Below, in pieces: positions 20,949 to 61,031 of a DNA stretch of 64,000 nt. Location of the stretch: the IMG/VR virus record IMGVR_UViG_3300020220_000041. One strand, given 5' to 3'. The notes beneath the pieces were generated by a model. That model saw only the letters and a list, made by a program, of their open reading frames with translations, did not search any database and had not been told where the DNA came from. Positions within the stretch are counted from its first letter, which is position 1. The number at the start of each line of letters is the position of its first letter. The position numbers were made by a program, and so were the translations under genes. The DNA is from a virus.

Positions 20949-21566
20949 ATGCGACAAGCACACACCCTTGCAGAGATTACGTCTGACTTGACCCTTCTGA
21001 ACCTCGGGGGCTGGAACGACCCCATTTTGGTGAGTTGTACTCGATGTGGGGAGACCTGCCCGAAGAAGAAGCACCACATTCGACAAGCAATCAAGGCGAA
21101 ACAAGTGGGGCTGTTCTGCTCGAAATGTCGTGTTGCTTCCTACCGTCGCGAGCAAACACTCGTGGAGCAAGACGGAGAGCAAGGTCGGGTTTGCATCAAG
21201 TGTGGTGTGTGGAAACCGCTCAGAAAGTTCTCTTCGGGTTCTATGTCTCGCACCTGCGCCTACTGTTGGGGTCAGCGTCCGAACATCCGGTTCCACGAGT
21301 ATGAACGCAGGGCCGCGTCAAGGGGGTACCCGTTCTCCCTCACCTTCGAGGAGTTCATGGGGTTCTGGGGGAAACCTTGTTCCTACTGTACAGGGCAAAT
21401 TTCTGGAATCGGCCTCGACCGCATCGACAACGAGAAAGGCTACGCCTTGGACAACGTGACACCCTGTTGTGAGACGTGTAACCGCATGAAACTCCAGATG
21501 GATCGGGCGGAGTTCATACAACATTGCCGTAAGATCGCATCGTCTCACCCCAATGTCGTGGCCTGA
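20949..21566 (+). CDS. HNH endonuclease (AP2-HNH type)
   Basis: GLDRIDNEKGYALDNVTPCCETCNRMK plus an N-terminal Zn-ribbon. Confidence 0.7.
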   Translation: MRQAHTLAEITSDLTLLNLGGWNDPILVSCTRCGETCPKKKHHIRQAIKAKQVGLFCSKCRVASYRREQTLVEQDGEQGRVCIKCGVWKPLRKFSSGSMSRTCAYCWGQRPNIRFHEYERRAASRGYPFSLTFEEFMGFWGKPCSYCTGQISGIGLDRIDNEKGYALDNVTPCCETCNRMKLQMDRAEFIQHCRKIASSHPNVVA

Positions 21567-35997: not shown

Positions 35998-36500
35998 AGG
36001 GCGGATAACCTACGCAGTTCCGCTGAAATCAGCCGATCTTGGCTTGCGTACTGTGCCTCGAACCCGCTCGCCTTTTCGTCGTCTTCCCGCCACCAGCGAG
36101 GCGCTGGCGAGAACCCGTGCTCATCCGCAATCCACTGCTCCTGACGTTCGGTCGGAGTGGGCCACTCCGTTGCAAGGAGGATGGGTTCCGAGCGTTGGTT
36201 GTCGAGGTTGAGCCAGGGGACAGACTTCAGGATGCCCTCGCCTTTGAAGGGTCGGCGTTTCCCGACTCGGAGGGCCATCCACTTGAGGACCGCATGTTCC
36301 CAGTCGTGGGGGCTGTTGAACCCGAGTTGGAGGGGGCCGTGTCCGTACTTGATGCCCCCTTGCTGAACGAGCCCCTGGAAACGGGGCCGAAGTCCCGTCG
36401 CCAGCACTTCGGACCCATCCCTGAGATGCTTCTCGGCGAAGGCCACCATCTCCCCGAGAGCCGCTTCAGAGCGGCAGGTGAAGGAGAAGCTGTAGCCCAT
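35979..36500 (-). CDS. Hypothetical protein
   Basis: The real part begins [26 protein letters not shown]. Its ATG overlaps the asnS stop as TGATG. Confidence 0.5.
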
Positions 36501-37840
36501 CAGATGCTCCCCGGAGTCCTGGGGTACGGAAGCACGTCGCGGATGTTCGGGACGCCCAGGAGCCACATCAGGATGCGTTCGAGGCCGAGCCCGAACCCAC
36601 CGTGAGGCACCGTGCCGTACCGGCGGAGGTCGATGTAGTGCCGGTAGTCGGACGGGTCGAGCTTGCACCGCTCGATCTGTGCGAGGAGCTTGTCGAGGCG
36701 CTCTTCACGCTGGGAGCCCCCGATGATCTCGCCCACACCGGGCACGAGCAGGTCGAAGCACGCGACCGTCTGACGACCAGGGACACATCCGTCGTTGAGC
36801 CGCATGTAGAACGACTTGTGCTGCGCGGGGTAGTCGGTGACGAACACCGGCCCCTGAAACACGACCTCGGCGATGTACCGCTCGTGCTCCGTCTGGAGGG
36901 GGTGCTCCCACCCAACGGGGTGCTCGAACTTCCGGCCGCTCTCCTCGAGGATTTCGAGGGCGTGCGCGTAGGTGATCCGAGCGAACGGGTCGAAGGAGAG
37001 GGCCACCTTGGCGGACTCCTGGATGGCTCCGGTCACCGAGAGAGCATGGGCACAGGCACGCACCAGTCCCTCGGCCAGGTCCATCACGTCGCCCACGTCC
37101 GCGAAGGCCACCTCGGGCTCGATCATCCAGAACTCGGCCGCATGGCGGGCCGTGTTGCTGTTCTCGGCCCGGAAGGTCGGCCCGAACGTGTAGACCTTCG
37201 AGAAGGCACAGGCGAACGGCTCCACGTCCAACTGGCCGGAGACAGTCAGGTACGCGGGCTGTCCGAAGAACGGCTCATCGTCCGTCTCCTTCTCGTGGAC
37301 GACCCCGAACATCTCACCCGCCCCCTCGCAGTCGGAGGCCGTGAGGATGGGCGTGTGTACCCACATGAACCCCCGCGTGCGGAAGAACTCGTGGATGGCA
37401 GTGGACACGGTGTTCCGAGCGATGAAAACGCGCTGGAACTCCTGCGTGCGGACGCGAAGATGGGGGATCGTCCGGTAGAACTCCGGAGACGCCTCCTTCT
37501 TCTGAACCGGGAAGTCCGAGGCGTCGCAGTCGCCCACGACGGTCACGCCCTCGAGGGTGGCCTTGATCTCGTGGGGCTGCTCGGGGCCTGGAGAGGCCGC
37601 GAACACGCCCGTCACGTCGAGGGCCGCCCCCACACCCAGGCGAGCCCGTAGGGCGTCGTCAGCGGGCGGGGAGAGGACGATCTGGACGGTCTTCTCGGTC
37701 GAGCCGTCGTACAGGTGGATGAACGTGACCTTCTTGGCGAAGCGAGACGTGCGGATCCAGCCCTGGACGCGGACGTGGGCACCTTCGGGAGTGATCCCCG
37801 TGAGCAGGCGGCGCACGGAGATGGGGTCAACGGGAACCAT
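36500..37840 (-). CDS. asnS: Asparaginyl-tRNA synthetase (class II)
   Basis: FRAENSNTARHAAEFWMIEPE, GGSQREER and YGTVPHGGFGLGLERILMWLLGVPNIRDVLPYPR. The N-terminal OB domain starts VRVQGWIRTSR. Confidence 0.8.
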   Translation of the reverse strand: MVPVDPISVRRLLTGITPEGAHVRVQGWIRTSRFAKKVTFIHLYDGSTEKTVQIVLSPPADDALRARLGVGAALDVTGVFAASPGPEQPHEIKATLEGVTVVGDCDASDFPVQKKEASPEFYRTIPHLRVRTQEFQRVFIARNTVSTAIHEFFRTRGFMWVHTPILTASDCEGAGEMFGVVHEKETDDEPFFGQPAYLTVSGQLDVEPFACAFSKVYTFGPTFRAENSNTARHAAEFWMIEPEVAFADVGDVMDLAEGLVRACAHALSVTGAIQESAKVALSFDPFARITYAHALEILEESGRKFEHPVGWEHPLQTEHERYIAEVVFQGPVFVTDYPAQHKSFYMRLNDGCVPGRQTVACFDLLVPGVGEIIGGSQREERLDKLLAQIERCKLDPSDYRHYIDLRRYGTVPHGGFGLGLERILMWLLGVPNIRDVLPYPRTPGSI

Positions 37841-37858
37841 GAAACACCTCAACGCCCA

Positions 37859-44712: not shown

Positions 44713-44931
44713 TTGGCTTCCGACGATCTGATCGAGGTAGAGGGCGTCGTCACCGAGGTATTTCCGAGCGGCAAGTTCATGGTGACGCTAGACGGAGAAC
44801 GCACCGTGATCGCCCACCTGGGCGGGAAGCTCCGGCAATTTCGCATCCGGGTGGTGCTCGGGGACAAGGTGACGGTAGGGTTGTCCCCCTACGATCTGAC
44901 GCGAGGTCGGATCACGTACCGCCACAAGTGA
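44713..44931 (+). CDS. infA: Translation initiation factor IF-1
   Basis: LIEVEGVVTEVFPSGKFMVTLDGERTVIAHLGGKLRQFRIRVVLGDKVTVGLSPYDLTRGRITYRHK aligns along its full length with the bacterial IF-1 S1-like fold. TTG start with an AGGA RBS. Confidence 0.75.
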   Translation: MASDDLIEVEGVVTEVFPSGKFMVTLDGERTVIAHLGGKLRQFRIRVVLGDKVTVGLSPYDLTRGRITYRHK

Positions 44932-44938
44932 GGTCGCC

Positions 44939-45133
44939 GTGAACGCCTGGACCATCGTGCCGAAGGGGGAGGGGGACTTGTCCTTCCGCGTGGGTTTGAA
45001 GCCCGGGGAGAAGCAAGCCATCGAGATGACCTTGTTCACACACCCCGAGCACGCCAAGGCCGCCTGGAAGAAGCTCCCGAAGGCCCAGCAGGTGCTCTCC
45101 GAGGTCATCCAGGTCGAGGTCTCGGTACGGTGA
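44939..45133 (+). CDS. Small hypothetical protein
   Basis: GTG start. 64 aa. Confidence 0.4.
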   Translation: MNAWTIVPKGEGDLSFRVGLKPGEKQAIEMTLFTHPEHAKAAWKKLPKAQQVLSEVIQVEVSVR

Positions 45134-45181
45134 AGGGACCCGTGGGGGTTCAGGAATTCGGCCCTTCGGCGTAAGGGGGGC

Positions 45182-45946
45182 ATGAAGAACGACTCCCTGG
45201 GCGACCGCATGAAGCGGTACGAGTTGGCTGGACGACAGCTTCTTGTGCCTCGAACCCCGGTCATCGCGCGCATCGACGGTAGGGCCTTCCACACCTTCAC
45301 GAAGGGGTGTGCTCGTCCCTACGACGAGGATCTGCACGCCTGTATGTGGGAAGCAGCCAAGGCGGTTGCGGCCGACATCGCGGGTTGCCGGCTGGCCTAC
45401 GTCCAGTCGGACGAGATCAGCCTGCTCCTGGTGGACTACGAGTCGAACGCCTCCCAGGCGCACTTCGACTACGAGGTGCCGAAGCTGACCTCGACGGCGG
45501 CGGCCACGGCGTCCGTGACGTTCCTCGTCGAGTTCCTCAACCGGTTCCCGGACCGTCGGGACCGGCTCATGTCGAAGCGGGGGCTCCCGACGTTCGACGC
45601 GAGGTTCTACAACGTTCCTCGAGAGGATGTGGACAACTACTTCCTGTGGCGACAGCGGGACGCGGAGCGGAACTCGCTGACGATGCAGGCCCAGGCGCAC
45701 TACTCCCACAAGGAACTTCACGGGAAGTCTCGTGCGGAGAGGCACGACCTCTTGCACGCCAAGGGCATCAACTGGAACGACCTCCCCACTCCTCGGAAGC
45801 GGGGGGTGTGCGTGGTCCGCGAGACCTATCAGAAGGGGGAGGGCCTGCGCTCTCGGTGGACTGTGGATGAGGACATCCCGATCTTCTCGACCCCCGAAGG
45901 CCGTCAGTACCTCGAACGCTTCGTGAATCCCCCTGCTTCTTCGTGA
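45182..45946 (+). CDS. Thg1-like protein (tRNA-His guanylyltransferase family, 3'-5' nucleotide addition)
   Basis: VIARIDGRAFHTFTKGCARPYDEDL and AYVQSDEISLLL match the Thg1 catalytic carboxylate motifs. Confidence 0.65.
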   Translation: MKNDSLGDRMKRYELAGRQLLVPRTPVIARIDGRAFHTFTKGCARPYDEDLHACMWEAAKAVAADIAGCRLAYVQSDEISLLLVDYESNASQAHFDYEVPKLTSTAAATASVTFLVEFLNRFPDRRDRLMSKRGLPTFDARFYNVPREDVDNYFLWRQRDAERNSLTMQAQAHYSHKELHGKSRAERHDLLHAKGINWNDLPTPRKRGVCVVRETYQKGEGLRSRWTVDEDIPIFSTPEGRQYLERFVNPPASS

Positions 45947-46386
45947 ATGGAGGTCTCGTGCAAGCCCACCTTGATGTGCCAGAGGAGTTCTGGCAGGCCC
46001 TGTACAAAGGCACCGTCCTCTGGGACGACCGGTCTGGGGCTTCCATCTGTCGATACGCGCTCCACGAACTCTACGTGGACCTGTTCGTCGACACGACGGG
46101 CCTTCAGCCGCCCGCCGAAGGTCCGCCCAAGGGCACACGCCACCTTCAGGTCAAGGCACAGTCTCCCGAGGAGGAGAGGCGGTGGGAGGCGTTGATTGCC
46201 CGCTACGGCTCGGGGTCGAAAGCCCTTGGAGTCGCGGTGCGGCATCTTCACGACTCCCTCTACTACGTCGATCCCTCACAAGAGCCGGAGCCGGAGCCCG
46301 CGAAGGTGACCTCGAAGGAAGTCTCCCAGTGGCGGAAGAAGCGGGCTGTGTCGAAGAAGGTTCAGACCGGCAGGGGTCGAGCGTAG
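45943..46386 (+). CDS. Hypothetical protein
   Basis: GTGA overlap with the Thg1-like stop. 147 aa. Confidence 0.45.
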   Translation: MNGGLVQAHLDVPEEFWQALYKGTVLWDDRSGASICRYALHELYVDLFVDTTGLQPPAEGPPKGTRHLQVKAQSPEEERRWEALIARYGSGSKALGVAVRHLHDSLYYVDPSQEPEPEPAKVTSKEVSQWRKKRAVSKKVQTGRGRA

Positions 46387-46399
46387 GGGGTGTAGGAGG
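46357..46399 (+). promoter_or_regulatory. Conserved promoter-like motif: AGGTTCAGA-N14-GCGTAGGGGGTGTAGGAGG
   Basis: Full copy ending in the RBS of the 46404 gene. Confidence 0.5.
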
Positions 46400-46403
46400 A
46401 GCG

Positions 46404-46769
46404 ATGCCCACCACAACCCCCACGACGATCGAGACGGACGGCAGGCTCCTGAAGGACATCTGTGCGGACATCCGTGCTGTCCTTCAGGCCGAGGATCTTC
46501 TCGACGACAGCTTCGGGCTGGCCCCGCTCATCGGCATGGACAGCGCGCAGTACAACAGCCGTCGTTGGCCGACCCGCTATCAGTGGGTGTCGGTGTTCGT
46601 CGTCACGGGCGGCTCGGAGGGGCACTACCTCCACGTCGAGATCATCACCCCGCCCACGAACCCGCGAGAGCAGGGTCCTCGTGAGATGGTGTTCCTCGCC
46701 AAGACCTTCATGGGTTGGGACTACGCCTGGCGTCAGGCCAAGCGCGTAGCCGAGCTTTTGGGGGCGTGA
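46404..46769 (+). CDS. Hypothetical protein
   Basis: MPTTTPTTIETDGRLLKD..., with an AGGAGGA RBS. Confidence 0.5.
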   Translation: MPTTTPTTIETDGRLLKDICADIRAVLQAEDLLDDSFGLAPLIGMDSAQYNSRRWPTRYQWVSVFVVTGGSEGHYLHVEIITPPTNPREQGPREMVFLAKTFMGWDYAWRQAKRVAELLGA

Positions 46770-47155
46770 TGCGCGGAACCCGCAAGGACTACGTGAGGCC
46801 CACCCGGGTCGAGGTGATGAACCTCATCCAGGCGTTCTTCGACGCCCCTCAACGGGAGTCGAAGCGCGGTGGGTTCGCCGAGGTGCTGGAGGGCGACAAG
46901 GACGAACTCGACGCCCTCATCCTCGCTCTCGTGAAGTACCGATACGAGCCAGACTCCGACGGGGACCGCCCGATCCGGTGGTCCCTGTGTGACTGGACCC
47001 GCGAGGAGCCCGGACACTACGTCAACCTCCCCAGGCTCGAGGACGACTGCTCGAACGGAAGCAAGGTGCTCGACCGGGCCCTCCTCAACCTCGCCCACGC
47101 GAACGAGGCCGTGCAGCAGGTCCACCGGATGATGAAGTTCCGGGAGGAGGGATGA
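46766..47155 (+). CDS. Hypothetical protein
   Basis: GTGA overlap. 129 aa. Confidence 0.45.
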   Translation: MMRGTRKDYVRPTRVEVMNLIQAFFDAPQRESKRGGFAEVLEGDKDELDALILALVKYRYEPDSDGDRPIRWSLCDWTREEPGHYVNLPRLEDDCSNGSKVLDRALLNLAHANEAVQQVHRMMKFREEG

Positions 47156-47397
47156 CTCCGTTCTACGTCTACTTCTACCGTGGGGGCCGGGATGCCTCGG
47201 AGCAGTTGGTCATCGTCCCCGAGGAGACGTTCAAGGCGCTCTGGCCGCATCGGGACGCTCTCGACAGCACCTACAATGTGCCGCCCGACGTGATGAACAT
47301 GGCCGAGGGCTTGCTCAAGCTCCCGCACGTCGATCTTCGGGAGTCCGAGTACGAAGACATCCCCGACGATCACTTCATCCGCGTCACCCTGTACTAG
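47152..47397 (+). CDS. Hypothetical protein
   Basis: ATGA overlap. 81 aa. Confidence 0.45.
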   Translation: MTPFYVYFYRGGRDASEQLVIVPEETFKALWPHRDALDSTYNVPPDVMNMAEGLLKLPHVDLRESEYEDIPDDHFIRVTLY

Positions 47398-47406
47398 AGG
47401 CCGGTC

Positions 47407-48021
47407 ATGTCCTTGTTTCTCACCAATCTCCGAGAGGCTCTTCGCAACGCAACGGTGGACGAGATCGTGGAGGCGTTGGCCTCGGCGGAGGAGCATCGTC
47501 CCGGGCTCGCCTACGAGGTGGGGATTCGCCTGTGGGAGCGGGATGTCTCGAAGGAGTTCCCCGGCCCGAACCCGTTCGACCACAACCCGAAGTCGGCGGA
47601 CAGGGGCGCGGTGCTCGCTGTGGCCTATGACCCGGCTCGTCGAGAGGAAGCCATCACGGGCTACCGCATCCTCTGCAACAACCCGATCCCCAGCTACGAT
47701 GAGAACGACCCGAAGTGGTTGAAGGCCCCGAAGGCGGAGCGTCGAGCCGCCAAGAGGGCTGTGGAGGAGTGGGCCCTGCCGAACCGCGACCGGGCACCCG
47801 TGTTCATCGCAACCCTCGACCAGGCGATGTCGGACACCAACATCCACCACAGGATCCGGGTTCACACCTACACCGATGCCCCAAGGAGCCGTGCCGAGGC
47901 CGAAGCTCTCCAGGCGAAGTGGGCCATGTACGGCGTCGTGACCATCATCGAAGGGTTCGAGGAGCCGGACAGGAGCCATCGACGGTCGATGCGGGACCTC
48001 TCTGCGGGCCCTGTCGGGTAG
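47407..48021 (+). CDS. Hypothetical protein
   Basis: 204 aa. Confidence 0.5.
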   Translation: MSLFLTNLREALRNATVDEIVEALASAEEHRPGLAYEVGIRLWERDVSKEFPGPNPFDHNPKSADRGAVLAVAYDPARREEAITGYRILCNNPIPSYDENDPKWLKAPKAERRAAKRAVEEWALPNRDRAPVFIATLDQAMSDTNIHHRIRVHTYTDAPRSRAEAEALQAKWAMYGVVTIIEGFEEPDRSHRRSMRDLSAGPVG

Positions 48022-48029
48022 GGGTCACC

Positions 48030-48647
48030 ATGAACAAGAATCTCAAGGTCGCCGAGCAGATGCTAGGCGAGGTCAGCGCGAACTGGTCGTGTCGGAGCAA
48101 GGAAGACTTCTTGGCGGCTGTCCGAGCCGCCTCGATGCTCTTGGACGGGTACGAACCCGTGGCCCTTCCCACAGACCCCTGGCTTCGAGCCATGGCTCCG
48201 AAGCCGGAAGAGGCGCGAAGGGTGCTCCAAGAGCCCCTCTCCCGGAATCCGGACGACCTCTACAAGTCCAACCTCATGGAGGTGGTCGGTCGTGCCCTGG
48301 GCTTCTTGCGGGGGTACGAACTGCCCAAGAACGTGCTTTCCAAGTACAAGTGCTCCTTCTGCGGGGCTTCCCACGTCAAGCTCTGGCGGGGCATCGGCTC
48401 AGCCCAGGAAGCCTGGTGCTCGAAGTGCGCGATGGCTCAAGCGGGTTTCCACGACACCATCGACGACGAGGGGATGCACATCGCGGAGTTCTCTGGACGG
48501 GCGGATGGGCGTTCGGACCAGATTTACAACTCCAAGAAGGGTCAGAACCTGCTTCCGTGGGTGCCCGCTCCCGATGGGGAGACGTGGGGCTACACCTCGG
48601 TGCCGCCCGAGGGTTGTGAGTGGTGGCGGGCCGTTCCGACTCGGTAG
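48030..48647 (+). CDS. Hypothetical Cys-containing protein
   Basis: Internal ATG of the track ORF. MNKNLKVAEQMLGEV...CSFCGASH...CSKCAM. Confidence 0.5.
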   Translation: MNKNLKVAEQMLGEVSANWSCRSKEDFLAAVRAASMLLDGYEPVALPTDPWLRAMAPKPEEARRVLQEPLSRNPDDLYKSNLMEVVGRALGFLRGYELPKNVLSKYKCSFCGASHVKLWRGIGSAQEAWCSKCAMAQAGFHDTIDDEGMHIAEFSGRADGRSDQIYNSKKGQNLLPWVPAPDGETWGYTSVPPEGCEWWRAVPTR

Positions 48648-48651
48648 TCGA

Positions 48652-49326
48652 TCAGGAGAACGCCCGGAACGTCACCGAGATCCGCCGCTTCTTGAACCGT
48701 GCAAAGTGGGGGACCTCGTGTGTCACCGCCAGGTTGGTCTCCCACGGCAGTATGACCACGTCTCCGTGCCCCACCTCCAAATCGAAGCACCCTCCAGGAG
48801 CCCGGAACGGCCGTAGCCGGAACACTCGCTCTCCTCCAAGGGACATCGTGACGATCGGGGAGCCGGGGATCAGTCCGATCGTGGAGTCCCGGTGTTTCCC
48901 GATGTAGTGCTCGAGTCCCGGGTCGTACCAGTTCAACAGGGGCGCATCCAACCTCGGATGAAGTCCCTGTGCCCACTCCACGAACGGCCCCAAGGCCGCC
49001 GGAGTCGGCAACGCCTGGTTCCGCTGTCCCGAGAACACGTAGTCGCGGTGGTACGCCTGCTGCCACCTCGGAAGGTTGGTCGGCGTGCTGTACATCATGA
49101 TCGACGGGAAGTGGTCGGGATGAAGGTCCCACAACTCGTCGAAGTCGCACCCAGCCAACTCGTCGGGGATCCGACCCACCCACACCTTGTGGCCGTTCTG
49201 CACCTGGACGGCCCGGAAGTCTTTGTTGGTCCGCGCGACAGGCCAGGGCCGTTCGCCCCCAGGTTCGGGTGGCCTCAACCCAGCAAGCTGCTCCAGAAAG
49301 TCGTCTTCCACAACACTCTCCTCCAA
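48652..49326 (-). CDS. AlkB-like 2OG-Fe(II) dioxygenase
   Basis: YDPGLEHYIGKHRDSTIGLIPGSPIVTMSLGGERVFRL ... GDVVILPWETNLAVTHEV (HxD...H and the RxS context). Confidence 0.6.
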   Translation of the reverse strand: MEESVVEDDFLEQLAGLRPPEPGGERPWPVARTNKDFRAVQVQNGHKVWVGRIPDELAGCDFDELWDLHPDHFPSIMMYSTPTNLPRWQQAYHRDYVFSGQRNQALPTPAALGPFVEWAQGLHPRLDAPLLNWYDPGLEHYIGKHRDSTIGLIPGSPIVTMSLGGERVFRLRPFRAPGGCFDLEVGHGDVVILPWETNLAVTHEVPHFARFKKRRISVTFRAFS

Positions 49327-49354
49327 CCTCGGCCCACACCCTTCCTACACGTTG

Positions 49355-49392
49355 ACGGTTCAGGTTTCTCCCCCCTGCGCGTAGGTGGGGGA
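49355..49392 (+). promoter_or_regulatory. Conserved promoter-like motif: CGGTTCAGG-N14-GCGCGTAGGTGGGGGAGG
   Basis: Full copy upstream of the macro-domain gene. Confidence 0.5.
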
Positions 49393-49405
49393 GGAAGGAG
49401 CAGTC

Positions 49406-50002
49406 ATGCGTGTCACTGTCGTTCGAGGCGACATCACCCAGCAGTCCGACGTGGACTGCATCGTCAACGCGGCTCACCCGAGCCTGGAAGGTGGAGGTGG
49501 GGTCGACGGGGCCATCCACCGTGCGGCCGGACAGCGGCTGCTCGAGGAGTGCATCACCTTCCCCGAAGTGCCAGGCGACAAGGTGGGTCCGAGCACCCGG
49601 TTCGTCCTGACCCGTGACGCCCCCTGGCGTACCCGCAAGATCCGGTGCGAGGTCGGGGACGCGGTGATCACGGGGGCCTATGCCCTGTCTCCCATCCAGC
49701 ACATCGTCCACACGGTCGGGCCGCTCTACGACCCGTCGCAGCCGGTGGAGATGGCGAACCTCCTGGCCACGGCCTTCGCGAACTCCTTGAAGCTCGCCCA
49801 GGAGAATGGCTGCAAGCGGGTGGCGTTGCCCGCCATCTCGTGCGGCGTGTTCCGGTTCCCCCTGGACGAAGCCGCCAAGATCGCGATGATGGTGGCCCGC
49901 CGTCCCGAGTGGACGTTCGACGAGATCCGGTTCGTTCTGTTCGAGGAGCCGGTCTACACGACGTTCTCCGAGGCTCTGAGTTCTGTGGAAGGTGCGTCGT
50001 GA
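49406..50002 (+). CDS. Macro-domain protein (ADP-ribose binding/hydrolase)
   Basis: IVNAAHPSLEGGGGVDGAIHRAAG. Confidence 0.7.
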   Translation: MRVTVVRGDITQQSDVDCIVNAAHPSLEGGGGVDGAIHRAAGQRLLEECITFPEVPGDKVGPSTRFVLTRDAPWRTRKIRCEVGDAVITGAYALSPIQHIVHTVGPLYDPSQPVEMANLLATAFANSLKLAQENGCKRVALPAISCGVFRFPLDEAAKIAMMVARRPEWTFDEIRFVLFEEPVYTTFSEALSSVEGAS

Positions 50003-50322
50003 CCTTGAACTACCGGGACCTGGAAGGCCGGACGAGGACGGCAACGTGGGCCGAGGTGTTCGAGTCCGCCAAGCGGATCCAGGACTTCTTCACGGCGGTG
50101 CGGCACAGGTTCGTCGAGCGGGACGAGCAAGAGGTGTGTGTCTTGTGGGCTGAGGAATCGGGCTGCTCCGGTGGCCCCCGGAACGATGTTCGGAAAGTGG
50201 GTGGCTCTCTCGGAAGGTCCACCTTCAGCGAACGGTCGGCAACTCCTCTGTCGATGTGCGTGTGGGACCGAGAAGCTCGTGGGCCTGAAGGCTTTGGAGA
50301 GTGGCAAGAGTGGCAAGTGTGA
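49999..50322 (+). CDS. Hypothetical protein (extent uncertain; overlaps the next HNH gene)
   Basis: GTGA overlap with the macro stop. The first ~60 aa are protein-like and the remainder may be read-through. Confidence 0.3.
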   Translation: MTLNYRDLEGRTRTATWAEVFESAKRIQDFFTAVRHRFVERDEQEVCVLWAEESGCSGGPRNDVRKVGGSLGRSTFSERSATPLSMCVWDREARGPEGFGEWQEWQV

Positions 50323-50689
50323 GGCTTGCCGTGCTCATTTTCGAGATTGCGGGGTTCACTCCACCACCTGGAGCCGAATCGTCTCGAACGCCAAACGTAG
50401 GGGACTACCTGTCACCCTCACCCCCAACGAAGTCTGGGACCTGCTGGTTCAACAGGAGTTCCGATGCAGGTTGTCGGGCTTGCCTATCCAGGAGCGCGAA
50501 AACGCCTCACTGGATCGTATCGACAACACCAAGGGCTACGTCGCCGGCAATGTGCAGTGGGTCCACAAGGACATCAACAGGATGAAGAACACGCACACGC
50601 AGGCATACTTCACGGACCTGTGTAGGGCCGTGGCAGAGGTTTCCCATGCGACAGATGTTGGACAGGTTGCTGCTCGGCGCACAGCCTGA
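50186..50689 (+). CDS. HNH endonuclease (AP2-HNH type)
   Basis: SLDRIDNTKGYVAGNVQWVHKDINRMK. Confidence 0.65.
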   Translation: MFGKWVALSEGPPSANGRQLLCRCACGTEKLVGLKALESGKSGKCEACRAHFRDCGVHSTTWSRIVSNAKRRGLPVTLTPNEVWDLLVQQEFRCRLSGLPIQERENASLDRIDNTKGYVAGNVQWVHKDINRMKNTHTQAYFTDLCRAVAEVSHATDVGQVAARRTA

Positions 50690-51941
50690 CCTGAAAGAAC
50701 TCACGAATGTCTTTGGGGATGCCGTCCCCGCCCTTCACCGGCTGGACGCGACTCCGCAGGATCCGGAATGGCATGGGGAAGGTTCGGTCGGAACGCACAC
50801 CCAGATGGTGCTCGACGAACTCTATCGGGCTTTCGATACGGATATCGGAAAGTCGATATCCCCCGTCGTCCGGCGGGAGTTGATCCTCGGGGTCTTGTTC
50901 CACGACGTGGCGAAGCCCTGGACGACCCGACGGATGGAGATCCGGGGAGTCGAGCGAGTCGTGGCTCCCCGCCATGAGTCCCAGGGGCGGTCCATCATCG
51001 CTCCGGCCCTCGTGGACGCGGGGCTGCCCTGGGAGAGTCTGTGGCACGTCATGGGCATCGTGGGGAGCCACCAGGAACCGAAGCTCCTGGTCGTCAAGGA
51101 CAAGCCTCCGGGCGAGTACAAGCGGCTCTCCCGCAAGGTGGACCCGTTCCGCGTCACGTTCATGGAGCAAGCCGACATGCGGGGGCGCATCTGCCCCGAT
51201 CTCCCGAAGCAGTTGGAGCACCTCGAGATGTTCCTTCTGGGGGCGGAGGAGTACGCTCCGACTGGGTGGCTGGAGGAGTGGCGGGCGCACTTCGCCGAAC
51301 TGACGGTAGGCCGTCCCACTGCGTTCCGGGACCGGGTGTTCGGCGAGGCTATTCGAGCCGTGGAGGAGGGCAAGATCACGACCCTCGAGGAGGGTGGGTT
51401 CCTCGTGTTCCAGGAGAACCCAACGCCTCCCGAACTCGTCGTGCTCTGCGGCCCGAGCGGCAGCGGGAAGTCCACGTTCATCCAGAAGCACCTCCCCGAC
51501 TACGAGGTGGTGTCCCTCGACAACCTCCGGGAGGAGATGTCGGGCGACCGGGCGGACCAGACGATGAACGGCCAGGTGCGGCAGGAGGCGCAGTTCCAGT
51601 TGAAGGCGGCCCTCCGGCCAGGTCGGAAGGTCGTGTGGGACGCGACGAACCTCCGCAAGGACTTCCGGTCGATGGTGTGTGCCACGGGGTTCGACTACCG
51701 GGCGCTTGTCACCCTGGTCGTCATCCACCTGAAGCCCGAGGATTATGCCGCTCGCAACCTGAAGCGAACCCAGGCGGTGCCATCCAAGGTGCTATCCTCG
51801 CAACTTGAGGGCTGGGAGTACCCAGACGTGGACGAGGCTCACCGGATGCTCGTACTCGACGGCACGGGTCATGTTCGCGGGGCGTTCGGGTTCACCGAGG
51901 GCTTGCCGTGGGGACTTCAGGCTGCCGGGGGGCGAACATGA
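50646..51941 (+). CDS. HD-domain phosphohydrolase fused to P-loop kinase (polynucleotide kinase/phosphatase-like RNA/DNA end-healing enzyme)
   Basis: HGEGSVGTHT...LGVLFHDVAKP (HD), then VVLCGPSGSGKSTF...VVWDATNL (Walker A and AAA_33-type kinase). Confidence 0.6.
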   Translation: MRQMLDRLLLGAQPDLKELTNVFGDAVPALHRLDATPQDPEWHGEGSVGTHTQMVLDELYRAFDTDIGKSISPVVRRELILGVLFHDVAKPWTTRRMEIRGVERVVAPRHESQGRSIIAPALVDAGLPWESLWHVMGIVGSHQEPKLLVVKDKPPGEYKRLSRKVDPFRVTFMEQADMRGRICPDLPKQLEHLEMFLLGAEEYAPTGWLEEWRAHFAELTVGRPTAFRDRVFGEAIRAVEEGKITTLEEGGFLVFQENPTPPELVVLCGPSGSGKSTFIQKHLPDYEVVSLDNLREEMSGDRADQTMNGQVRQEAQFQLKAALRPGRKVVWDATNLRKDFRSMVCATGFDYRALVTLVVIHLKPEDYAARNLKRTQAVPSKVLSSQLEGWEYPDVDEAHRMLVLDGTGHVRGAFGFTEGLPWGLQAAGGRT

Positions 51942-52261
51942 CTCGAATCGAAGGAGTAGGCCCCCTCCTCGACATCCTGAAGGTGTCCGACGCGGAGGTT
52001 CACAGCGCGTTCCGGGTCGGGTCGTGGGTGTACGGGTGTGCCACGGAGTCCTCGGACGAGGACTTCCTGGTGGTGCTGCATCAGGGAAAGAGGGACCTCG
52101 TGTTCCGGCCCGGCATCAACATCACTGTCCACACGGTCGAGTCGTTCGAGGCGTCGTTGGCGGGGCACTCGATGTTCGCGCTGGAGTGTCTGTTCGCCCC
52201 AAAGGAGGCTCAGATGCAGGTATCCGAGGTTCATCTGCTCCAAAGAACGGTCTGGGCCTGA
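51938..52261 (+). CDS. Minimal nucleotidyltransferase (Pol-beta-like NTase fold)
   Basis: GSWVYGCATESSDEDFLVV (GS...DxD). ATGA overlap. Confidence 0.55.
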   Translation: MTRIEGVGPLLDILKVSDAEVHSAFRVGSWVYGCATESSDEDFLVVLHQGKRDLVFRPGINITVHTVESFEASLAGHSMFALECLFAPKEAQMQVSEVHLLQRTVWA

Positions 52262-52472
52262 CGCTTAAAGTATCAGGCCGGGCCGTGTTTCCAGCCTTGC
52301 ACCAGTTTCTATATGACGGGGCTACGGTGTGGATGCCTCGTAAACGTGCCCTCGTTGAGCGTGCGGTTCTTCAAGAGCCGAACCACGTTCAGACGAGTGA
52401 CCACTGGATGCACTCGGCCATTGTCCCCAATCGGCTTCGTGGGTAGCGTCGCACCTCCAATGGAGGTGCGAC

Positions 52473-52706
52473 ATGCCTGCTGACCCTTACGTTGAGCTAC
52501 GAGCCTTTTGGGACAAATGGGCCTCCCTTCAAGCCGAGCATGCCTGGCGTATATACCGTTCGGGAGAACTCACACCCAAGGTCGAAAAGGTAGTTATGAA
52601 CGCAGCAACAGGTGTGTTCGAGGTGACCTTTGCAGGAGGTGACGTGTATGTCGTGGAGCCGTCGGGGATGGGGCGGGTGCATCACCGACCGCCTCATTCC
52701 GCGTAG
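52473..52706 (+). CDS. Small hypothetical protein
   Basis: 77 aa. Confidence 0.4.
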   Translation: MPADPYVELRAFWDKWASLQAEHAWRIYRSGELTPKVEKVVMNAATGVFEVTFAGGDVYVVEPSGMGRVHHRPPHSA

Positions 52707-52730: not shown

Positions 52731-53291
52731 GTGTCGAAGGATGACATCTACATCAGCGTGGACATCGAGTCGGACGGTCCGATTCCAGGTCCCAATTCCA
52801 TGCTCTCTCTGGGCGCGGCAGCGTTCCGTGCCGGGAGTCGAGAGCCCCTCGCTACGTTCGAGGTGAACCTCACGCCGCTGTCGGGGGCCACCCCGGACCC
52901 CGAGACGATGGCGTGGTGGAGCAAGCAAGACCCCGAGGTATGGAAGCACGTCACCAGCAATCCGCTTGAGCCCCGGTCTGCGATGACGGCATTCGCGGAC
53001 TGGGTTCGGGGGCTCGGGGGCGACCCCGTGATGGTGGTGTACCCGACGTGGGACTCAGTCTGGATGCACTGGTACCTGGTTCGATTTTTGGGGAAGTCTC
53101 CCTTCGGACTGGGTGCGTTGGATGTCAAGACCCTGGCCTTCTCGAAGCTGGGAGGCCGAGATTTCAAAGGAACATCAAAGCGCAAGATGCCGAGTCAGTG
53201 GTTTGAGGGCTGCCCGCCCCACACCCACAAGGGGCTTGACGACGCCATCGGGCAGGGGATCTTGTTCATCAACATCTTGGAACAGAAGTAG
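52731..53291 (+). CDS. DEDDh 3'-5' exonuclease (DnaQ/RNase T-like)
   Basis: YISVDIESDGP ... HKGLDDAIGQG. Confidence 0.6.
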   Translation: MSKDDIYISVDIESDGPIPGPNSMLSLGAAAFRAGSREPLATFEVNLTPLSGATPDPETMAWWSKQDPEVWKHVTSNPLEPRSAMTAFADWVRGLGGDPVMVVYPTWDSVWMHWYLVRFLGKSPFGLGALDVKTLAFSKLGGRDFKGTSKRKMPSQWFEGCPPHTHKGLDDAIGQGILFINILEQK

Positions 53292-53323
53292 ACACCAGCG
53301 CACCCACGGGGTACACTGGTGTC

Positions 53324-53947
53324 ATGCCTTGTCCGAAATGCGGTGCGGATCGACCTCACTTTGCCAAGGGTCTGTGCAAAAGCTGCTACAACGGCGAGCA
53401 CAAGATCGCGGTGCCGCAGTCGTTGTCAGATCCCGCCTTGGCACAAAGATTTTGGTCGAAAGTCCAACACGGTTCCACGGACGCCTGCTGGCCGTGGCTG
53501 CACTCAACCACCAAGAAAGGGTACGGGAAGTTCAACTTCAACGGGAAAGGGTGGATGGCCCACCGGCTGGCGTGGGCCATCCACCACCAACGCGAACCCC
53601 TGCCCGACGAAGCCGTGTGTCATCAGTGCGACACCCCCGCTTGCTGCAACCCGACCCACTTGTGGGTCGGGTCTCGTAAGGACAACCTTCGCGACATGGT
53701 GGCGAAAGGCAGGCACGGAGCCACCAGACCCCGCGCCCTTCTCTTGCGGCTTATGGGCTTCGTTGATTCCAGGGGTTTAACAATCCCCGAACCCCTCCGT
53801 ACCGACCTTCAAACCTACTTGAAGGACTCCGCCCGGTGGCAGAACATCAAGGCTTCTTCGGCAACCCCTGTAGGAGCGGATTCCGAGGCTCCGATTCCGA
53901 CGGAGTCGGGGGCGGAGGAGGGGGTGGGGGAAACTGCGTCCGGCTGA
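53324..53947 (+). CDS. HNH endonuclease
   Basis: CHQCDTPACCNPTHLWVGSRKDN, with an N-terminal CPKCG...CKSC. Confidence 0.65.
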   Translation: MPCPKCGADRPHFAKGLCKSCYNGEHKIAVPQSLSDPALAQRFWSKVQHGSTDACWPWLHSTTKKGYGKFNFNGKGWMAHRLAWAIHHQREPLPDEAVCHQCDTPACCNPTHLWVGSRKDNLRDMVAKGRHGATRPRALLLRLMGFVDSRGLTIPEPLRTDLQTYLKDSARWQNIKASSATPVGADSEAPIPTESGAEEGVGETASG

Positions 53948-55528: not shown

Positions 55529-56140
55529 TCATCGGCGATCCGCTTCTCGAACCACTTTCCGACACGACTCGATGAACTCTTCCACGCTTTGCGTGCCTTT
55601 CATCTTGTTGCAGATAAAACAAGCTGAAACACAGTTGTCCTCGAAGTAATCCTTGGAGCTATCTACCCGATCGAGCCCCAGAGTCTCATTTGGGCCGCCA
55701 CAGTAAAAACACGGCTTACCCACTACAAGTCTTTCCCAAACATCTTCGGGGAGGGCCGTTCGACCAGTGGTGCGGGTAGACCCCACATACGTCAAATAAC
55801 GGCCGTGTTGGGTTTTCCGGGAAAGACTCGAAGCCCGGTTCATACAAGCACGACACCACGAGTGTCGTCCATCCAATGATGAGGACAACACAGGGAAATC
55901 CGTCATTAGTTGCTCGACCGCACAACTACGGCACGTCTTCCTCCCTGTTTGAAGCCTTGTGTGCGCTGCTTCTCGCTGAGCCGTTTCAAGAAGCGCAGCT
56001 TTCGGGGGGCGGGTCTCCCGTTTGTATGCCGCAACGCAGCTTTTGCACCAGTAGTGGAGGGGCCGACCTCGCGACCCCTTGCAAAAGTCGGAGGCGGGTA
56101 GGGTCTGGCGACAACGATGGCATTCGACTTGTTCAGACAT
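55529..56140 (-). CDS. HNH endonuclease (AP2-HNH type)
   Basis: LGLDRVDSSKDYFEDNCVSACFICNKMKG. It lies on the minus strand inside the plus-strand block. Confidence 0.65.
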   Translation of the reverse strand: MSEQVECHRCRQTLPASDFCKGSRGRPLHYWCKSCVAAYKRETRPPKAALLETAQREAAHTRLQTGRKTCRSCAVEQLMTDFPVLSSSLDGRHSWCRACMNRASSLSRKTQHGRYLTYVGSTRTTGRTALPEDVWERLVVGKPCFYCGGPNETLGLDRVDSSKDYFEDNCVSACFICNKMKGTQSVEEFIESCRKVVREADRR

Positions 56141-58307: not shown

Positions 58308-58949
58308 ATGCTCGAGTGGATCCAGGGCTGGTACAATTGGCCGTTTCTCCTATCGCTTTTCGTCGGGCTCGGGCTCGCAACGCTCTCGGTGCTCGGCTTC
58401 TCCAAGGACGGCGGTGTAGACCTGGACGGAGACGGAGTCCCGGACATCGGGGCTCCAGGCAGGCATGAGCCTGGTCACCTCTCGATGGAGGGGTTCGGCT
58501 GGCTCGGCTTGGGCAAGGCTCCGCTGTCGGTGCTCCTCCAGACGCTCACCCTGACGTTCGGCCTCGTGGGCTTGTTGGTCAACGCCTTCGCCCATGATGT
58601 TGTCGGCGACTGGGACGTTCTGGCGTTCCCGCTGTCGTTCGGGGTGGCCGCCGTCGGTTCAATGGCTGCCACCCGGGGCGTCGCCTCTCTGTTCTTCCGG
58701 TTCATGCCGCCCGAGCGGGCCACGGGCGCACAGCCCGGTGAGTTCGTCGGCAAGAGCGGCAAGGCCGCATCCGGCATCACCCTTTCGTTTGGGCAAGTGC
58801 AGGTCGAGGAGGAGAACAGCAACGCTCTCCTCAACGCTTGTGTTGCCCCTGGAGCCTCCGAAATCGAACGCGGCACGGAGGTTCTGTTGGTTGGCTACGA
58901 CAAAGAACGCCGCATTTACCTCGCAATCTCCATCCCTTCGGAGACGTGA
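58308..58949 (+). CDS. NfeD-like membrane protein
   Basis: Three TM segments, then a soluble beta-rich C-terminus (GEFVGKSGKAASGITLSFGQVQVEEENSNALLNA...). It sits immediately upstream of the flotillin gene. Confidence 0.5.
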   Translation: MLEWIQGWYNWPFLLSLFVGLGLATLSVLGFSKDGGVDLDGDGVPDIGAPGRHEPGHLSMEGFGWLGLGKAPLSVLLQTLTLTFGLVGLLVNAFAHDVVGDWDVLAFPLSFGVAAVGSMAATRGVASLFFRFMPPERATGAQPGEFVGKSGKAASGITLSFGQVQVEEENSNALLNACVAPGASEIERGTEVLLVGYDKERRIYLAISIPSET

Positions 58950-58955
58950 AGCATC

Positions 58956-61031
58956 ATGGACGCAATGCCTACCACCCTGATCATGCTGGCTGTCGCAGCC
59001 GTTGCCGTGATCGTGTTCATCGTGAGCACGATGGCTGCCATCAAGGCGTTCTACAAGGTCCCCAACGCGGACGAAGCCCTCGTCAAGACGGGCGGCAAAG
59101 AGCCCGTGGTGAGCACGGGCGGTGGCCTGTGGGTCATCCCGATGTTCCACAAGGTCACGAAGGTCAGCCTCCGTGCCGTGAAGATCCCCATCAACCGCAC
59201 GGGTGATGACGCCCTCCCGACGGCGAACAAGATCCCCGCCGAGATCATCGGTGAGTTGATCGTCCGCGTGGACTCGTCGAACACCGCGCACATCATCCTC
59301 GCGGCCCAGGCGTTGGGCTCCGAGTCCGAGTCCACGGGCCACATCGAAGGCCGGATGAGCCAGATCATCCAGCAGCAGGTGGACAGCCTCGTCACCGACG
59401 CTCTCCGTACCGCCGCCTTCAAGAAGGCGTTCGAGAAGCTCAACTCCGAGAAGAAGGAGTTCGCCGACGAGGTGACCCAGCTTCTCGGTGAAGACCTCGC
59501 GAAGCTCGGCCTCGTGCTCGTGGCCGTGACCATCCCGAGCATCAAGCAGGGTGCCTTCACGAAGGACGCTGGTGACGTGTTCGCGGCCGAAGGTCAGCGC
59601 AACGTCGCCGAGACGGTCGCCAAGAACAAGCAGGAGACCAACCTCATCAACCGCGAGGCCGAGGTCAAGATCCAGGAGCAGGACGTGGCGGCCCGGAAGC
59701 GCCAGCTTGCGTTGGACCTCGAGCGGAAGCAACTCGAAGCCGACCAGACCCGCCAGGTGTCCGAGTACGAGGCCACCCAGGCGACCGAGACGAAGAAGGC
59801 CGTGTTGGCCCAGGAACAGGCACAGGCCGTGGCATCGGCCACCCAGGCCGAGCAGGTCGCCAAGGCGGAGATCGCTCGCGACCAGTCCGTGAAGGCGGCC
59901 GAGATCGCCCGTGACCAGACCTTGGCCACCCAGCAGGCCAAGGCCGCTGCGGAACAGAAGAAGGCCGAGGAGGAGGCCGCCCGGATCAAGTCCGAGGCCG
60001 AGATCGCCCGTCAGAAGGCGGTCGAGGCGGCGGCCATCGAGAAGGACCAGACCATCAAGGTCGCCGACCAGAAGCGTCAGCAAGCGGTGTCCGAGGCCGA
60101 GATCGCCCGTGAGGTCGCCGTCGCACAGCGGAAGGCCGAGGAGGCACAGGCTCGGGCGACCCAGGCGACTGCGGAAGCCGAGAAGCAGAAGGCCGAACAG
60201 GCCATCGTGACGGTCGAGGCCGAGGCGAAGGCCGACCGTGAGAAGCGCGTCGTCACCATCAAGGCCGAGGAGGAGGCCACCAAGGCCAAGGTCGCTGCCG
60301 ACCGGGACGCCTACGTCCAGACGAAGAAGGCGGAAGCCGATCGCGACGCGGCCCAGAAGCGGGCCGAGGCGGCCAAGGTCGAGGCCGAAGGAAAGGCCCA
60401 GGCGGTCACCGCCGAAGCGGATGGTCGGGCTCGGGCGTTGAAGGCGGACGCCACCGGTAAGGCCGAAGCGGCCAAGTCCGAGGCGGAGGGTCGTGCCGAG
60501 GCCCTGAAGCTCCAGGCGCAGGCCGAAGCGGAGGCCCGTACCATCAAGGCGAACGCGGAGTCCGAGGCGGCCGACAAGGAAGCCAAGGCGAAGATCGCCC
60601 TGGCGGGGGCCATCCTCGAGGAAGGCAAGGCCCGTGCGGAGGCCGAGCGCCTGCTCACCGAGGCCAAGAACGCCGTCTCGAAGGAGACGATGATCCGCGA
60701 CGTGTCGCTGAAGCTCGTCGAACAGGCTCCGGCCATCGTCCGCGAGTTCATGGCTCCGATCACGAAGGTCTCCGACGTGAAGGTGCTCCAGATCAACGGG
60801 CTCGGTGGCGGCGACGGGGATGGGTCGAACCTCCCGGCGACCATCATGGGTGCGGGGCTGGCTGCCTCCGGGGCTCTCCCGCTCGTGAAGGAGGCCATGA
60901 AGGGGCTCGTCCAGAACCCCGAGGTGCAGGAGATCACCAGCATCCTCGGGAACGTCGCCAAGGACACCCTCCGTGGTGCGGCCTCGGCGGTGCGCGAGGG
61001 TGCGGGTCACTCTCCCGACAACGGAGCTTGA
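58956..61031 (+). CDS. Flotillin-like SPFH/band-7 protein with long Ala/Glu/Lys coiled coil
   Basis: N-terminal TM, then an SPFH core (ALVKTGGKEPVVSTGGGLWVIPMFHKVTKVSLRAVKIPI), then ~400 aa of AEAK-type heptads. Confidence 0.7.
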   Translation: MDAMPTTLIMLAVAAVAVIVFIVSTMAAIKAFYKVPNADEALVKTGGKEPVVSTGGGLWVIPMFHKVTKVSLRAVKIPINRTGDDALPTANKIPAEIIGELIVRVDSSNTAHIILAAQALGSESESTGHIEGRMSQIIQQQVDSLVTDALRTAAFKKAFEKLNSEKKEFADEVTQLLGEDLAKLGLVLVAVTIPSIKQGAFTKDAGDVFAAEGQRNVAETVAKNKQETNLINREAEVKIQEQDVAARKRQLALDLERKQLEADQTRQVSEYEATQATETKKAVLAQEQAQAVASATQAEQVAKAEIARDQSVKAAEIARDQTLATQQAKAAAEQKKAEEEAARIKSEAEIARQKAVEAAAIEKDQTIKVADQKRQQAVSEAEIAREVAVAQRKAEEAQARATQATAEAEKQKAEQAIVTVEAEAKADREKRVVTIKAEEEATKAKVAADRDAYVQTKKAEADRDAAQKRAEAAKVEAEGKAQAVTAEADGRARALKADATGKAEAAKSEAEGRAEALKLQAQAEAEARTIKANAESEAADKEAKAKIALAGAILEEGKARAEAERLLTEAKNAVSKETMIRDVSLKLVEQAPAIVREFMAPITKVSDVKVLQINGLGGGDGDGSNLPATIMGAGLAASGALPLVKEAMKGLVQNPEVQEITSILGNVAKDTLRGAASAVREGAGHSPDNGA

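Follow-up and report, generated by a model that had tools for sequence, protein, structure and literature searches.

Probable loss of the RNA ligase from a break-repair cassette of an uncultivated large phage

The IMG/VR virus record IMGVR_UViG_3300020220_000041 was analyzed over a stretch of 64,000 nucleotides (the window), whose gene content is that of a large uncultivated phage. The locus of interest encodes a Macro domain protein, a protein consisting of an N-terminal HD domain and a C-terminal P-loop kinase domain (HD-Pnk), a short nucleotidyltransferase (NTase), and a DEDDh exonuclease, and lies downstream of a gene for a Thg1-like protein (TLP); coordinates are collected in Table 1. The locus is most likely a partly decayed break-repair cassette, conserved across a set of large uncultivated phages, from which the RNA ligase was lost by a lineage-specific deletion, and not a pathway that operates without a ligase. 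An end-healing or RNA-repair-type gene set had been proposed here from the sequence alone (the original prediction), and this proposal is supported. All of the genes that were named exist, each being an open reading frame (ORF) with a coding-type GC bias at third codon positions (GC3) and a significant family match. The span that had been assigned to the set (44713-51941) was too short, since the NTase and the exonuclease lie beyond it and the set extends to 53291. The set also holds the Macro gene, directly upstream, and a gene for an AlkB-like oxygenase on the minus strand, beyond the genes first named.

Related contigs revealed what an intact cassette looks like. Contigs L095 and L093/L094, whose HD-Pnk proteins are 62% and 64% identical to that of the window, respectively, show synteny with the window that extends beyond 15 kb. 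The shared gene order is Macro, HD-Pnk, an NTase of 191-213 residues, zero to two small ORFs, an intact RNA ligase of the PF09414 family (216-243 residues), and an Rv2179c-like exonuclease, and the cassette is followed in the relatives by genes for a dNMP kinase and NT5C. An intact PF09414 ligase was found between the NTase and the exonuclease in all three related phage contigs that span this interval (L093/L094, L095, and L101). L101 begins inside the NTase and keeps the same order onward; L100 begins inside the ligase, which is followed by the exonuclease, and its HD-Pnk region is not on the contig. The exonucleases of both are 76% identical to that of the window. A full-length NTase directly after HD-Pnk was also observed in L008 and in L012, a contig from a metagenome-assembled genome (MAG). 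The L095 ligase is 44% identical to DR_B0100 of Deinococcus radiodurans. Two further loci carry a ligase with HD-Pnk: in L007 (10001-11951), a bacterial-looking contig, a ligase 72% identical to that of L095 lies downstream of HD-Pnk, and in the MAG contig L012 (2007-4572) the ligase, HD-Pnk, and the full-length NTase occur together. These two loci suggest that the cassette has been exchanged between phages and bacteria.

In the window, only the ligase gene's 3′ end remains. A short stretch downstream of the NTase, in a frame other than that of the NTase, encodes AVLQEPNHVQTSDHWMHSAIVPNRLR, which corresponds to the last ~26 ligase codons. It is 61.5% identical over 26 residues to residues 189-214 of the 216-residue L095 ligase, 75% identical over 20 residues to the C-terminus of the L007 ligase (tblastn, E 1e-5 against the whole window), and 75% identical to the equivalent remnant in L100. 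Upstream of the remnant, the window encodes AVLQE where the homologues have AKMVR, and the PF09414 nucleotidyltransferase domain, with its motif I lysine (KxDG), has not been kept. A sensitive tblastn search of 52180-52475 in all frames did not detect any ligase or NTase C-terminus beyond the 26-codon remnant. The statement of the original prediction that the window has no obvious RNA ligase holds for an intact enzyme and fails for the remnant: a Pfam scan of 34 further ORFs, of ~100 residues or more, and tblastn with four ligase queries found no intact RNA ligase, RtcB, or CCA-adding enzyme in the window.

The NTase is truncated as well, and only its N-terminal catalytic half is present. The window protein has 107 residues, compared with 191-213 in its homologues, aligns only to homologue residues 8-93, and lacks the C-terminal half, including a near-invariant H/R/F block (YHSxRVxxFA); it had been described as a minimal NTase, but it is short only through truncation. 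Its sequence tracks that of its closest relative, L092, up to LECLFAPKEA, then diverges, and ends 16 codons on. Because the NTase of L092, whose HD-Pnk is 88% identical to that of the window, extends well past this breakpoint, the truncation is recent. Six contigs, assembled separately from different samples, carry the same sequence throughout 51900-52480, so the junction is not an assembly error, and an assembly artefact at the NTase/ligase junction was ruled out. We infer that a deletion of ~0.9-1.9 kb took the C-terminal half of the NTase and essentially the whole ligase. Since the relatives keep the ligase and the window keeps a remnant of it, the missing ligase reflects lineage-specific decay, rather than an alternative Thg1/HD-kinase route, which had been the original reading of its absence.

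The interval between the ligase and the exonuclease has been remodeled in other relatives. In L100 (478-1578) the order is the intact ligase, a gene of the LAGLIDADG type on the opposite strand, a duplicated 3′ remnant of the ligase, orf70, and the exonuclease, and in L101 (1607-2515) it is a ligase of another subtype, a 302-residue ORF that ends in a stretch resembling a ligase C-terminus, orf74, and the exonuclease. The remnant in the window occupies the same position as those in L100 and L101, just before the homologous orf77. The interval is a hot spot, and these arrangements suggest ligase replacement driven by homing endonucleases. Compared with L095, the window has gained two HNH endonucleases in the cassette and the AlkB-like gene. 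The simplest history would be homing-endonuclease traffic around the ligase gene, followed by the deletion. The GC-rich hairpin just past the remnant overlaps the ribosome-binding site of orf77 and has no T tract, and it was therefore not flagged by a terminator scan. A second perfect GC-rich hairpin, of 15 pairs, lies at 53291-53323, in the gap just past the exonuclease.

The HD-Pnk gene itself is intact. Aligned over 392 residues with D. radiodurans DR_B0098, which is cited as a polynucleotide kinase or HD-Pnk (PMC6300522), the protein shows 36% identity (E 3e-61); the comparison used the MP1 gene at that position, and the locus tag was mapped through the operon order in PMC6300522. The kinase half matches the kinase domain of Clostridium thermocellum Pnkp (CthPnkp; PDB 4jst, 3e-15) and, at 7e-18, the bacterial Pnkp model of NCBIfam, its closest relatives are CthPnkp, mammalian PNKP, T4 Pnk, and Pnkp1, and tRNA and RNA kinases are among its structural neighbors. 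For the HD region, the nearest match is a tRNA nucleotidyltransferase, and not dGTPase or SAMHD1. All family-invariant residues of the HD domain (the His/Asp metal ligands) and of the P-loop are present, the HD motif being invariant across 26 homologues, and the AlphaFold model built from these homologues is very confident (pLDDT, the predicted local distance difference test, 95.7). The likeness to polynucleotide end-healing enzymes that had been noted earlier is borne out by these comparisons, and by its sequence the protein is a member of the end-healing HD-Pnk family, in which the N-terminal HD domain is predicted to be a 2′,3′-phosphoesterase and the C-terminal P-loop domain a 5′-OH polynucleotide kinase.

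The genomic company of HD-Pnk is equally consistent. The family was confirmed at 354 bacterial loci, and in 75 of the best 80, for which neighborhoods were counted, an RNA ligase of ~215 residues (PF09414) is encoded immediately upstream of HD-Pnk on the same strand, the tblastn alignments of the two lying a median of 43 nt apart. This arrangement agrees with the ligase/HD-Pnk operon known from Runella slithyformis (PMC6097658). A ligase partner was also found beside HD-Pnk in the IMG/VR contig L010. Sequenced phages almost lack full-length HD-Pnk of this type: among 50,697 GenBank phage records it gave one match, a distant one, and an alignment-based search of IMG/VR found two loci, also distant; a search of IMG/VR with the single protein returned only one spurious match of 19 residues. 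Exact copies of the window protein are present on ten metagenome contigs (≤68.5 kb) from several samples. The ratio of nonsynonymous to synonymous substitution (dN/dS) relative to L092 is 0.13, a value that spans the whole divergence from L092 and not only the period since the deletion. HD-Pnk is under purifying selection. Because the gene is intact and its dN/dS is low, the protein is probably still functional, whether together with a ligase from the unsampled part of the genome or in a role that requires no sealing.

A mechanism for the intact cassette, with its substrates (RNA or DNA) and the order of its reactions, can be proposed from the characterized homologues. The P-loop domain of HD-Pnk would phosphorylate 5′-OH ends, and the HD domain would strip 2′,3′-cyclic, 3′- or 2′-phosphates, leaving a 5′-phosphate and a 3′-OH. 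The exonuclease and the NTase might then adjust the 3′ end, by trimming it or by restoring one or two nucleotides, the PF09414 ligase would seal the break, and the Macro protein might clear ADP-ribose-type adducts or by-products. In the phage analyzed here, only end healing (HD-Pnk), 3′ trimming (exonuclease), and the Macro protein appear to remain locally. Because the ligase has been deleted, sealing must come from a ligase encoded outside the ~64-kb contig or by the host; otherwise the pathway is incomplete.

The substrate is probably RNA, and probably tRNA, as judged from the RNA-type partner enzymes and from a second ligase in L095. The latter (L095: 935-2248, minus strand) is a 437-residue protein, in which a PheT/YtpR-type tRNA-binding domain (PF01588) is fused to an RNA ligase domain (PF09414, with Rnl2/DRB0094-like matches). 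The fusion implies a tRNA-directed ligase; no counterpart of it was found in the window.

Several points weigh against reading the locus as a decayed RNA-repair cassette. The best-characterized homologous operon, D. radiodurans DR_B0100/DR_B0099/DR_B0098, has been implicated in DNA repair after irradiation (PMC6300522). In Runella, HD-Pnk has been described as healing the ends of both DNA and RNA, and its partner ligase failed to seal any of the substrates tested (PMC6097658). Because the Deinococcus operon is implicated in DNA repair and the Runella ligase sealed no substrate, the assignment to RNA is tentative. Genes for a dNMP kinase, NT5C, and a dCMP deaminase adjoin the cassette. In addition, the window samples ~64 kb of a probably much larger genome, in which a ligase could be encoded elsewhere, and the purifying selection on HD-Pnk could equally reflect a role without a ligase.

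Some of these points raise the possibility, which we regard as doubtful though worth weighing, that the cassette heals DNA ends, as was proposed for the D. radiodurans ligB operon; it may then repair nicks or breaks that host nucleases, or the many HNH endonucleases of the phage itself, make in phage DNA. A 2017 study of the Runella HD-Pnk reportedly observed activity on DNA 3′-phosphate ends as well as on RNA ends. The homologies of HD-Pnk to DR_B0098 and of the relatives' ligase to DR_B0100 are consistent with a DNA substrate, mutants in these genes being radiation-sensitive (PMC6300522), as are the published description of the Runella enzyme (PMC6097658) and the dNMP kinase, NT5C, and dCMP deaminase neighbors. 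The partners of HD-Pnk, however, are of RNA type, comprising an RlaP-like NTase, an Rv2179c-type exoribonuclease, and a sealing enzyme of the RNA_ligase family, and both the tRNA-binding ligase of L095 and the tRNA and RNA kinases among the structural neighbors of the kinase domain argue for RNA.

The decay of an RNA-repair cassette also has to be weighed against a repair system that never seals, and this question turns on the Thg1-like protein. The protein matches PF04446 with 101.8 bits (cut-off 29.2), the Thg1C domain being sub-threshold (23.4 versus 26.3), and the matching PHROG family is labeled "tRNA-His guanylyltransferase". Its closest solved structure is the Bacillus thuringiensis TLP (BtTLP; PDB 4kgk, ~49% identity over the full length), whereas the eukaryotic enzymes are far more distant (Candida Thg1, 2.5e-14; human Thg1, 3.4e-7). 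The phage protein is of the bacterial TLP type, not a eukaryotic G-1-adding Thg1, and is a predicted template-dependent 3′-5′ nucleotidyltransferase. Residues D32 (RIDGRAFH) and D77-E78 (QSDEIS) are invariant in an alignment with BtTLP, L095, and Burkholderia phage BcepSaruman; from Thg1 structures, we take these to be the metal-binding catalytic carboxylates of the palm domain. Conservation of the carboxylates had been set beforehand as the test of the Thg1-like identity, which survives it. Bacterial-type TLPs rebuild 5′-truncated tRNAs in vitro by templated 3′-5′ addition, and require a substrate with a 5′-phosphate or triphosphate.

The TLP gene was found to belong to a conserved module of its own, IF-1/orf64/Thg1, which L095 carries at the same position as the window. 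IF-1, the first gene of this module, is present as originally predicted, as is the tRNA cluster (six tRNAs at 935-1935), but it is a neighbor and not a repair enzyme; orf64 had no match in Pfam or PHROG searches. Thg1 and the cassette occur together only in the window and in L095; in L093 and L008 the 10 kb around the cassette contain no Thg1, and of the 80 bacterial loci only 1 has it near the homologous cassette. A megablast search of the region against GenBank phages gave a single match, of 114 nt, inside the Thg1 gene of BcepSaruman, whose neighborhood contains hypothetical proteins only and was uninformative. We infer that the TLP is an independent tRNA 5′-end repair or maturation enzyme, encoded 5 kb upstream of the cassette and having no genetic tie to it, which could use 5′-phosphate ends.

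A ligase-independent form of tRNA repair, in which HD-Pnk phosphorylates 5′-OH ends, the TLP rebuilds truncated 5′ ends, and the HD domain and the exonuclease clean 3′ ends for the CCA-adding enzyme of the host, without sealing, therefore seems unlikely. In its favor, none of HD-Pnk, the TLP, and the exonuclease is damaged, tRNAs and further translation genes are encoded by the phage, the TLP requirement for a 5′-phosphate or triphosphate would suit such a scheme, and HD-Pnk has a low dN/dS despite the loss of the ligase. The loss is, however, a recent deletion, four related loci (L093/L094, L095, L100, and L101) keep the ligase at its position, Thg1 is rarely linked to the cassette, and the dN/dS value covers the full divergence from L092 and not the post-deletion period alone. 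A variant in which the retained HD-Pnk, TLP, and exoribonuclease came to act jointly only after the ligase was lost, so that 5′ ends would be re-phosphorylated and rebuilt, and 3′ ends dephosphorylated and trimmed for CCA addition by the host, is given slightly less chance still. Such a sealing-independent system, if it existed, would repair acceptor-stem or terminal damage, rather than cuts in the anticodon loop.

A role of the HD-kinase in nucleotide metabolism, with a nucleotide kinase joined to an HD domain that acts as a nucleotidase or dNTPase, was rejected as highly improbable, together with a dGTPase-like identity: the genes for DNMK, NT5C, and dCMP deaminase lie within a few kb and the HD Pfam match is weak, but 75 of 80 bacterial genomes have the RNA ligase tightly coupled to HD-Pnk within one operon, the protein is homologous to the characterized HD-Pnk DR_B0098, and its HD region has the neighbors described above, so that the original supposition that it would not group with enzymes of dNTP metabolism stands.

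The NTase is best described as RlaP-like. Before ligation, RlaP enzymes extend damaged RNA 3′ ends by one or two nucleotides, and T4 NrdC.11 is a named member (PMC12776372). The window protein contains a Pol-beta motif (GS..SDEDF) within the stretch GSWVYGCATESSDEDF, and across 50 members of the family its G, S, and SD-x-D residues vary little or not at all. An exhaustive phmmer search with the NTase reached 139 cluster representatives, mostly of 190-210 residues, whereas a less exhaustive search with the 107-residue protein reached only itself. When 50 members of the family were scanned, 39 matched NTP_transf_2 and 18 matched PF10127 (RlaP) at E ≤ 0.01; the window protein has no PF10127 match, and its full-length relatives reach 14-17 bits, below the cut-off of 23. 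Comparison of the family with T4 NrdC.11 by hhalign gave a probability of 96.6%, confined to a catalytic core of 76 columns, and the match to phrog_388, the T4 NrdC.11 family, covers only the N-terminal ~90 residues. Profile searches of the PDB with the family returned only generic MNT/ANT nucleotidyltransferases (E ~0.01), and no RlaP structure was matched by sequence. These comparisons suggest that the family is related to RlaP.

The remaining genes of the cassette were assigned by family searches and by synteny. Macro is the first gene of the conserved cassette, and in L093, L094, and L095 it immediately precedes HD-Pnk. The last gene encodes a predicted DEDDh exoribonuclease of the Rv2179c-like type, whose translation shows the motifs VDIESDG toward its N-terminus and HKGLDDA toward its C-terminus, and is 59-62% identical and syntenic in L093 and L095. 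No family match was found for orf77. The HNH endonuclease between Macro and HD-Pnk, which metagenome gene callers start at 50279, is absent from L095 and L093, and the AlkB-like gene is lineage-specific, a counterpart at the same place in L095 being absent. An ADP-ribosylglycohydrolase (PF03747, 1.7e-63) is encoded at 62127-63164 and is conserved in L093 and L101; together with Macro, it makes two different ADP-ribose-removing enzymes within 14 kb.

Table 1. Features of the repair locus and of the upstream module in the window
Feature	Coordinates	Strand	Evidence and remarks
IF-1 homologue	44713-44931	+	PF01176 E 1.5e-20; 69% identical and syntenic in L095
Conserved 64-residue ORF (orf64) between IF-1 and Thg1	44939-45133	+	54% identical, same position in L095
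Thg1-like protein, bacterial TLP type	45182-45946	+	PF04446 E 3.5e-29; phrog_4717 8e-88; PDB 4kgk 1.9e-70
AlkB-like 2-oxoglutarate-Fe(II) oxygenase	48652-49326	-	PF13532 E 1.4e-16; weak TIGR00568 alkB matches
Macro domain protein, ADP-ribose/O-acetyl-ADP-ribose hydrolase type	49385-50002	+	PF01661 E 7.6e-34; NF001664 8.5e-50
HNH endonuclease between Macro and HD-Pnk	50138-50689	+	phrog_3322 1e-22; phrog_1035 2e-19
HD-Pnk, intact gene	50646-51941	+	AAA_33 3.9e-23; HD 0.0034 (weak)
Truncated RlaP-like Pol-beta NTase, N-terminal catalytic half only	51938-52261	+	phrog_388 1e-8; start overlaps HD-Pnk stop (ATGA)
3′ remnant (pseudogene) of DR_B0100-type PF09414 RNA ligase	52363-52440 (52363-52446 including stop)	+	tblastn
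11-bp GC-rich hairpin, GTCGCACCTCC-AAT-GGAGGTGCGAC	52447-52473	+	Read from the sequence; just past the ligase remnant
Conserved 77-residue ORF (orf77) before the exonuclease	52473-52706	+	67% identical to L101 orf74, 62% to L100 orf70, same position
Rv2179c-like DEDDh 3′-5′ exoribonuclease (predicted), last cassette gene	52731-53291	+	PF16473 E 2.6e-10, 40.7 bits (cut-off 27); phrog_255
Second inserted HNH endonuclease	53324-53947	+	PF13392 E 5e-7; absent from L095 and L093

Over the whole window, GC content is ~64%, and the ORFs show a strong GC3 bias. An Rfam scan found only the six tRNAs, and no Y-RNA-like or other repair-associated RNA; a promoter and terminator scan found sites no more numerous than in shuffled sequence. 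A DprA/SLOG-family protein adjoins the tRNA cluster (2096-2848, minus strand), and a class II aminoacyl-tRNA synthetase (tRNA-synt_2, Asp/Lys/Asn type, E 3e-70) is encoded at 36500-37852 on the minus strand. Replication-related genes include a SNF2 helicase and a 1510-residue UvrD/REP-type helicase (25774-30306), which is probably intein-containing, with Hint/intein matches in the middle of its helicase domain (residues ~692-1035). The minus strand also encodes a 554-residue protein with a ThyX-like C-terminal region (PF02511; 6775-8439) and a glutamine-synthetase-like protein (14462-15538). A YqiJ_N membrane protein followed by a 691-residue SPFH/flotillin protein (58308-61031) forms a pair that is kept in L100. 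The window carries at least four genes or gene fragments for HNH-type endonucleases, namely the two in Table 1 and others at ~21165-21557 and ~55553-55948 (the latter on the minus strand).

The classes of enzyme found here are already known from jumbo phages, for which ATP-dependent ligases, polynucleotide kinases, HAD, calcineurin, and (rarely) HD phosphatases, RlaP, CCA-adding enzymes, sporadic Thg1, and Macro have been described as RNA repair components (Iyer et al. 2021, Viruses 13:63, PMC7824862); the specific five-gene order does not occur in the passages of that review that were consulted. What is new is the presence of the HD-Pnk family proper in phages, the specific cassette of five genes, and a documented case of ligase decay within it. 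The HD-Pnk family, so far characterized only in Runella and Deinococcus, now reaches uncultivated large phages, and a defined phage cassette could be reconstituted to find the natural substrate of the PF09414 (DR_B0100-type) ligase family. The window also shows how repair cassettes decay and are remodeled around homing-endonuclease insertion sites, and it offers a caution, in that the missing ligase is a deletion scar and not a new pathway.

The components resemble several known systems in part. The phage TLP shares with the B. thuringiensis enzyme its conserved carboxylates and about half of its residues, and differs in being phage-encoded and in adjoining IF-1. In T4, Pnkp and Rnl1 counter the PrrC anticodon nuclease; in contrast, the phosphatase considered here is of the HD rather than the HAD type and is N-terminal to the kinase, the ligase of the relatives is a PF09414 enzyme of ~216 residues, not Rnl1, and none survives in the window, and the cassette has additional NTase, exonuclease, and Macro partners. 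With the bacterial Pnkp/Hen1 and RlaP RNA repair operons (Burroughs & Aravind 2016; Carruthers et al. 2025 preprint), the cassette shares a kinase domain most similar to CthPnkp and a Pol-beta NTase associated with an RNA ligase, the defining trait of RlaP. Unlike the Pnkp/Hen1 operons, it has neither a Hen1 methyltransferase nor a metallophosphoesterase, and unlike RlaP proteins (~250-340 residues), its NTase family has ~200 residues and falls below the PF10127 threshold, the window copy being truncated.

The closest parallel is with the HD-Pnk of R. slithyformis and D. radiodurans DR_B0098, which have the same architecture of an N-terminal HD phosphoesterase and a C-terminal P-loop kinase as the phage protein, although the latter is phage-encoded and its ligase has been deleted in the window. 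A macro-type protein, DR_B0099, is also present in the Deinococcus operon, as Macro is here, but it is PARG-like (TIGR02452), whereas the phage protein is of the Af1521/YmdB type (PF01661), and their pairwise similarity is marginal (E 0.035). The Deinococcus genes, which lie on a megaplasmid, are ordered ligase (DR_B0100), macro/PARG-like protein (DR_B0099), and HD-Pnk (DR_B0098), while the phage order is Macro, HD-Pnk, NTase, ligase, and exonuclease.

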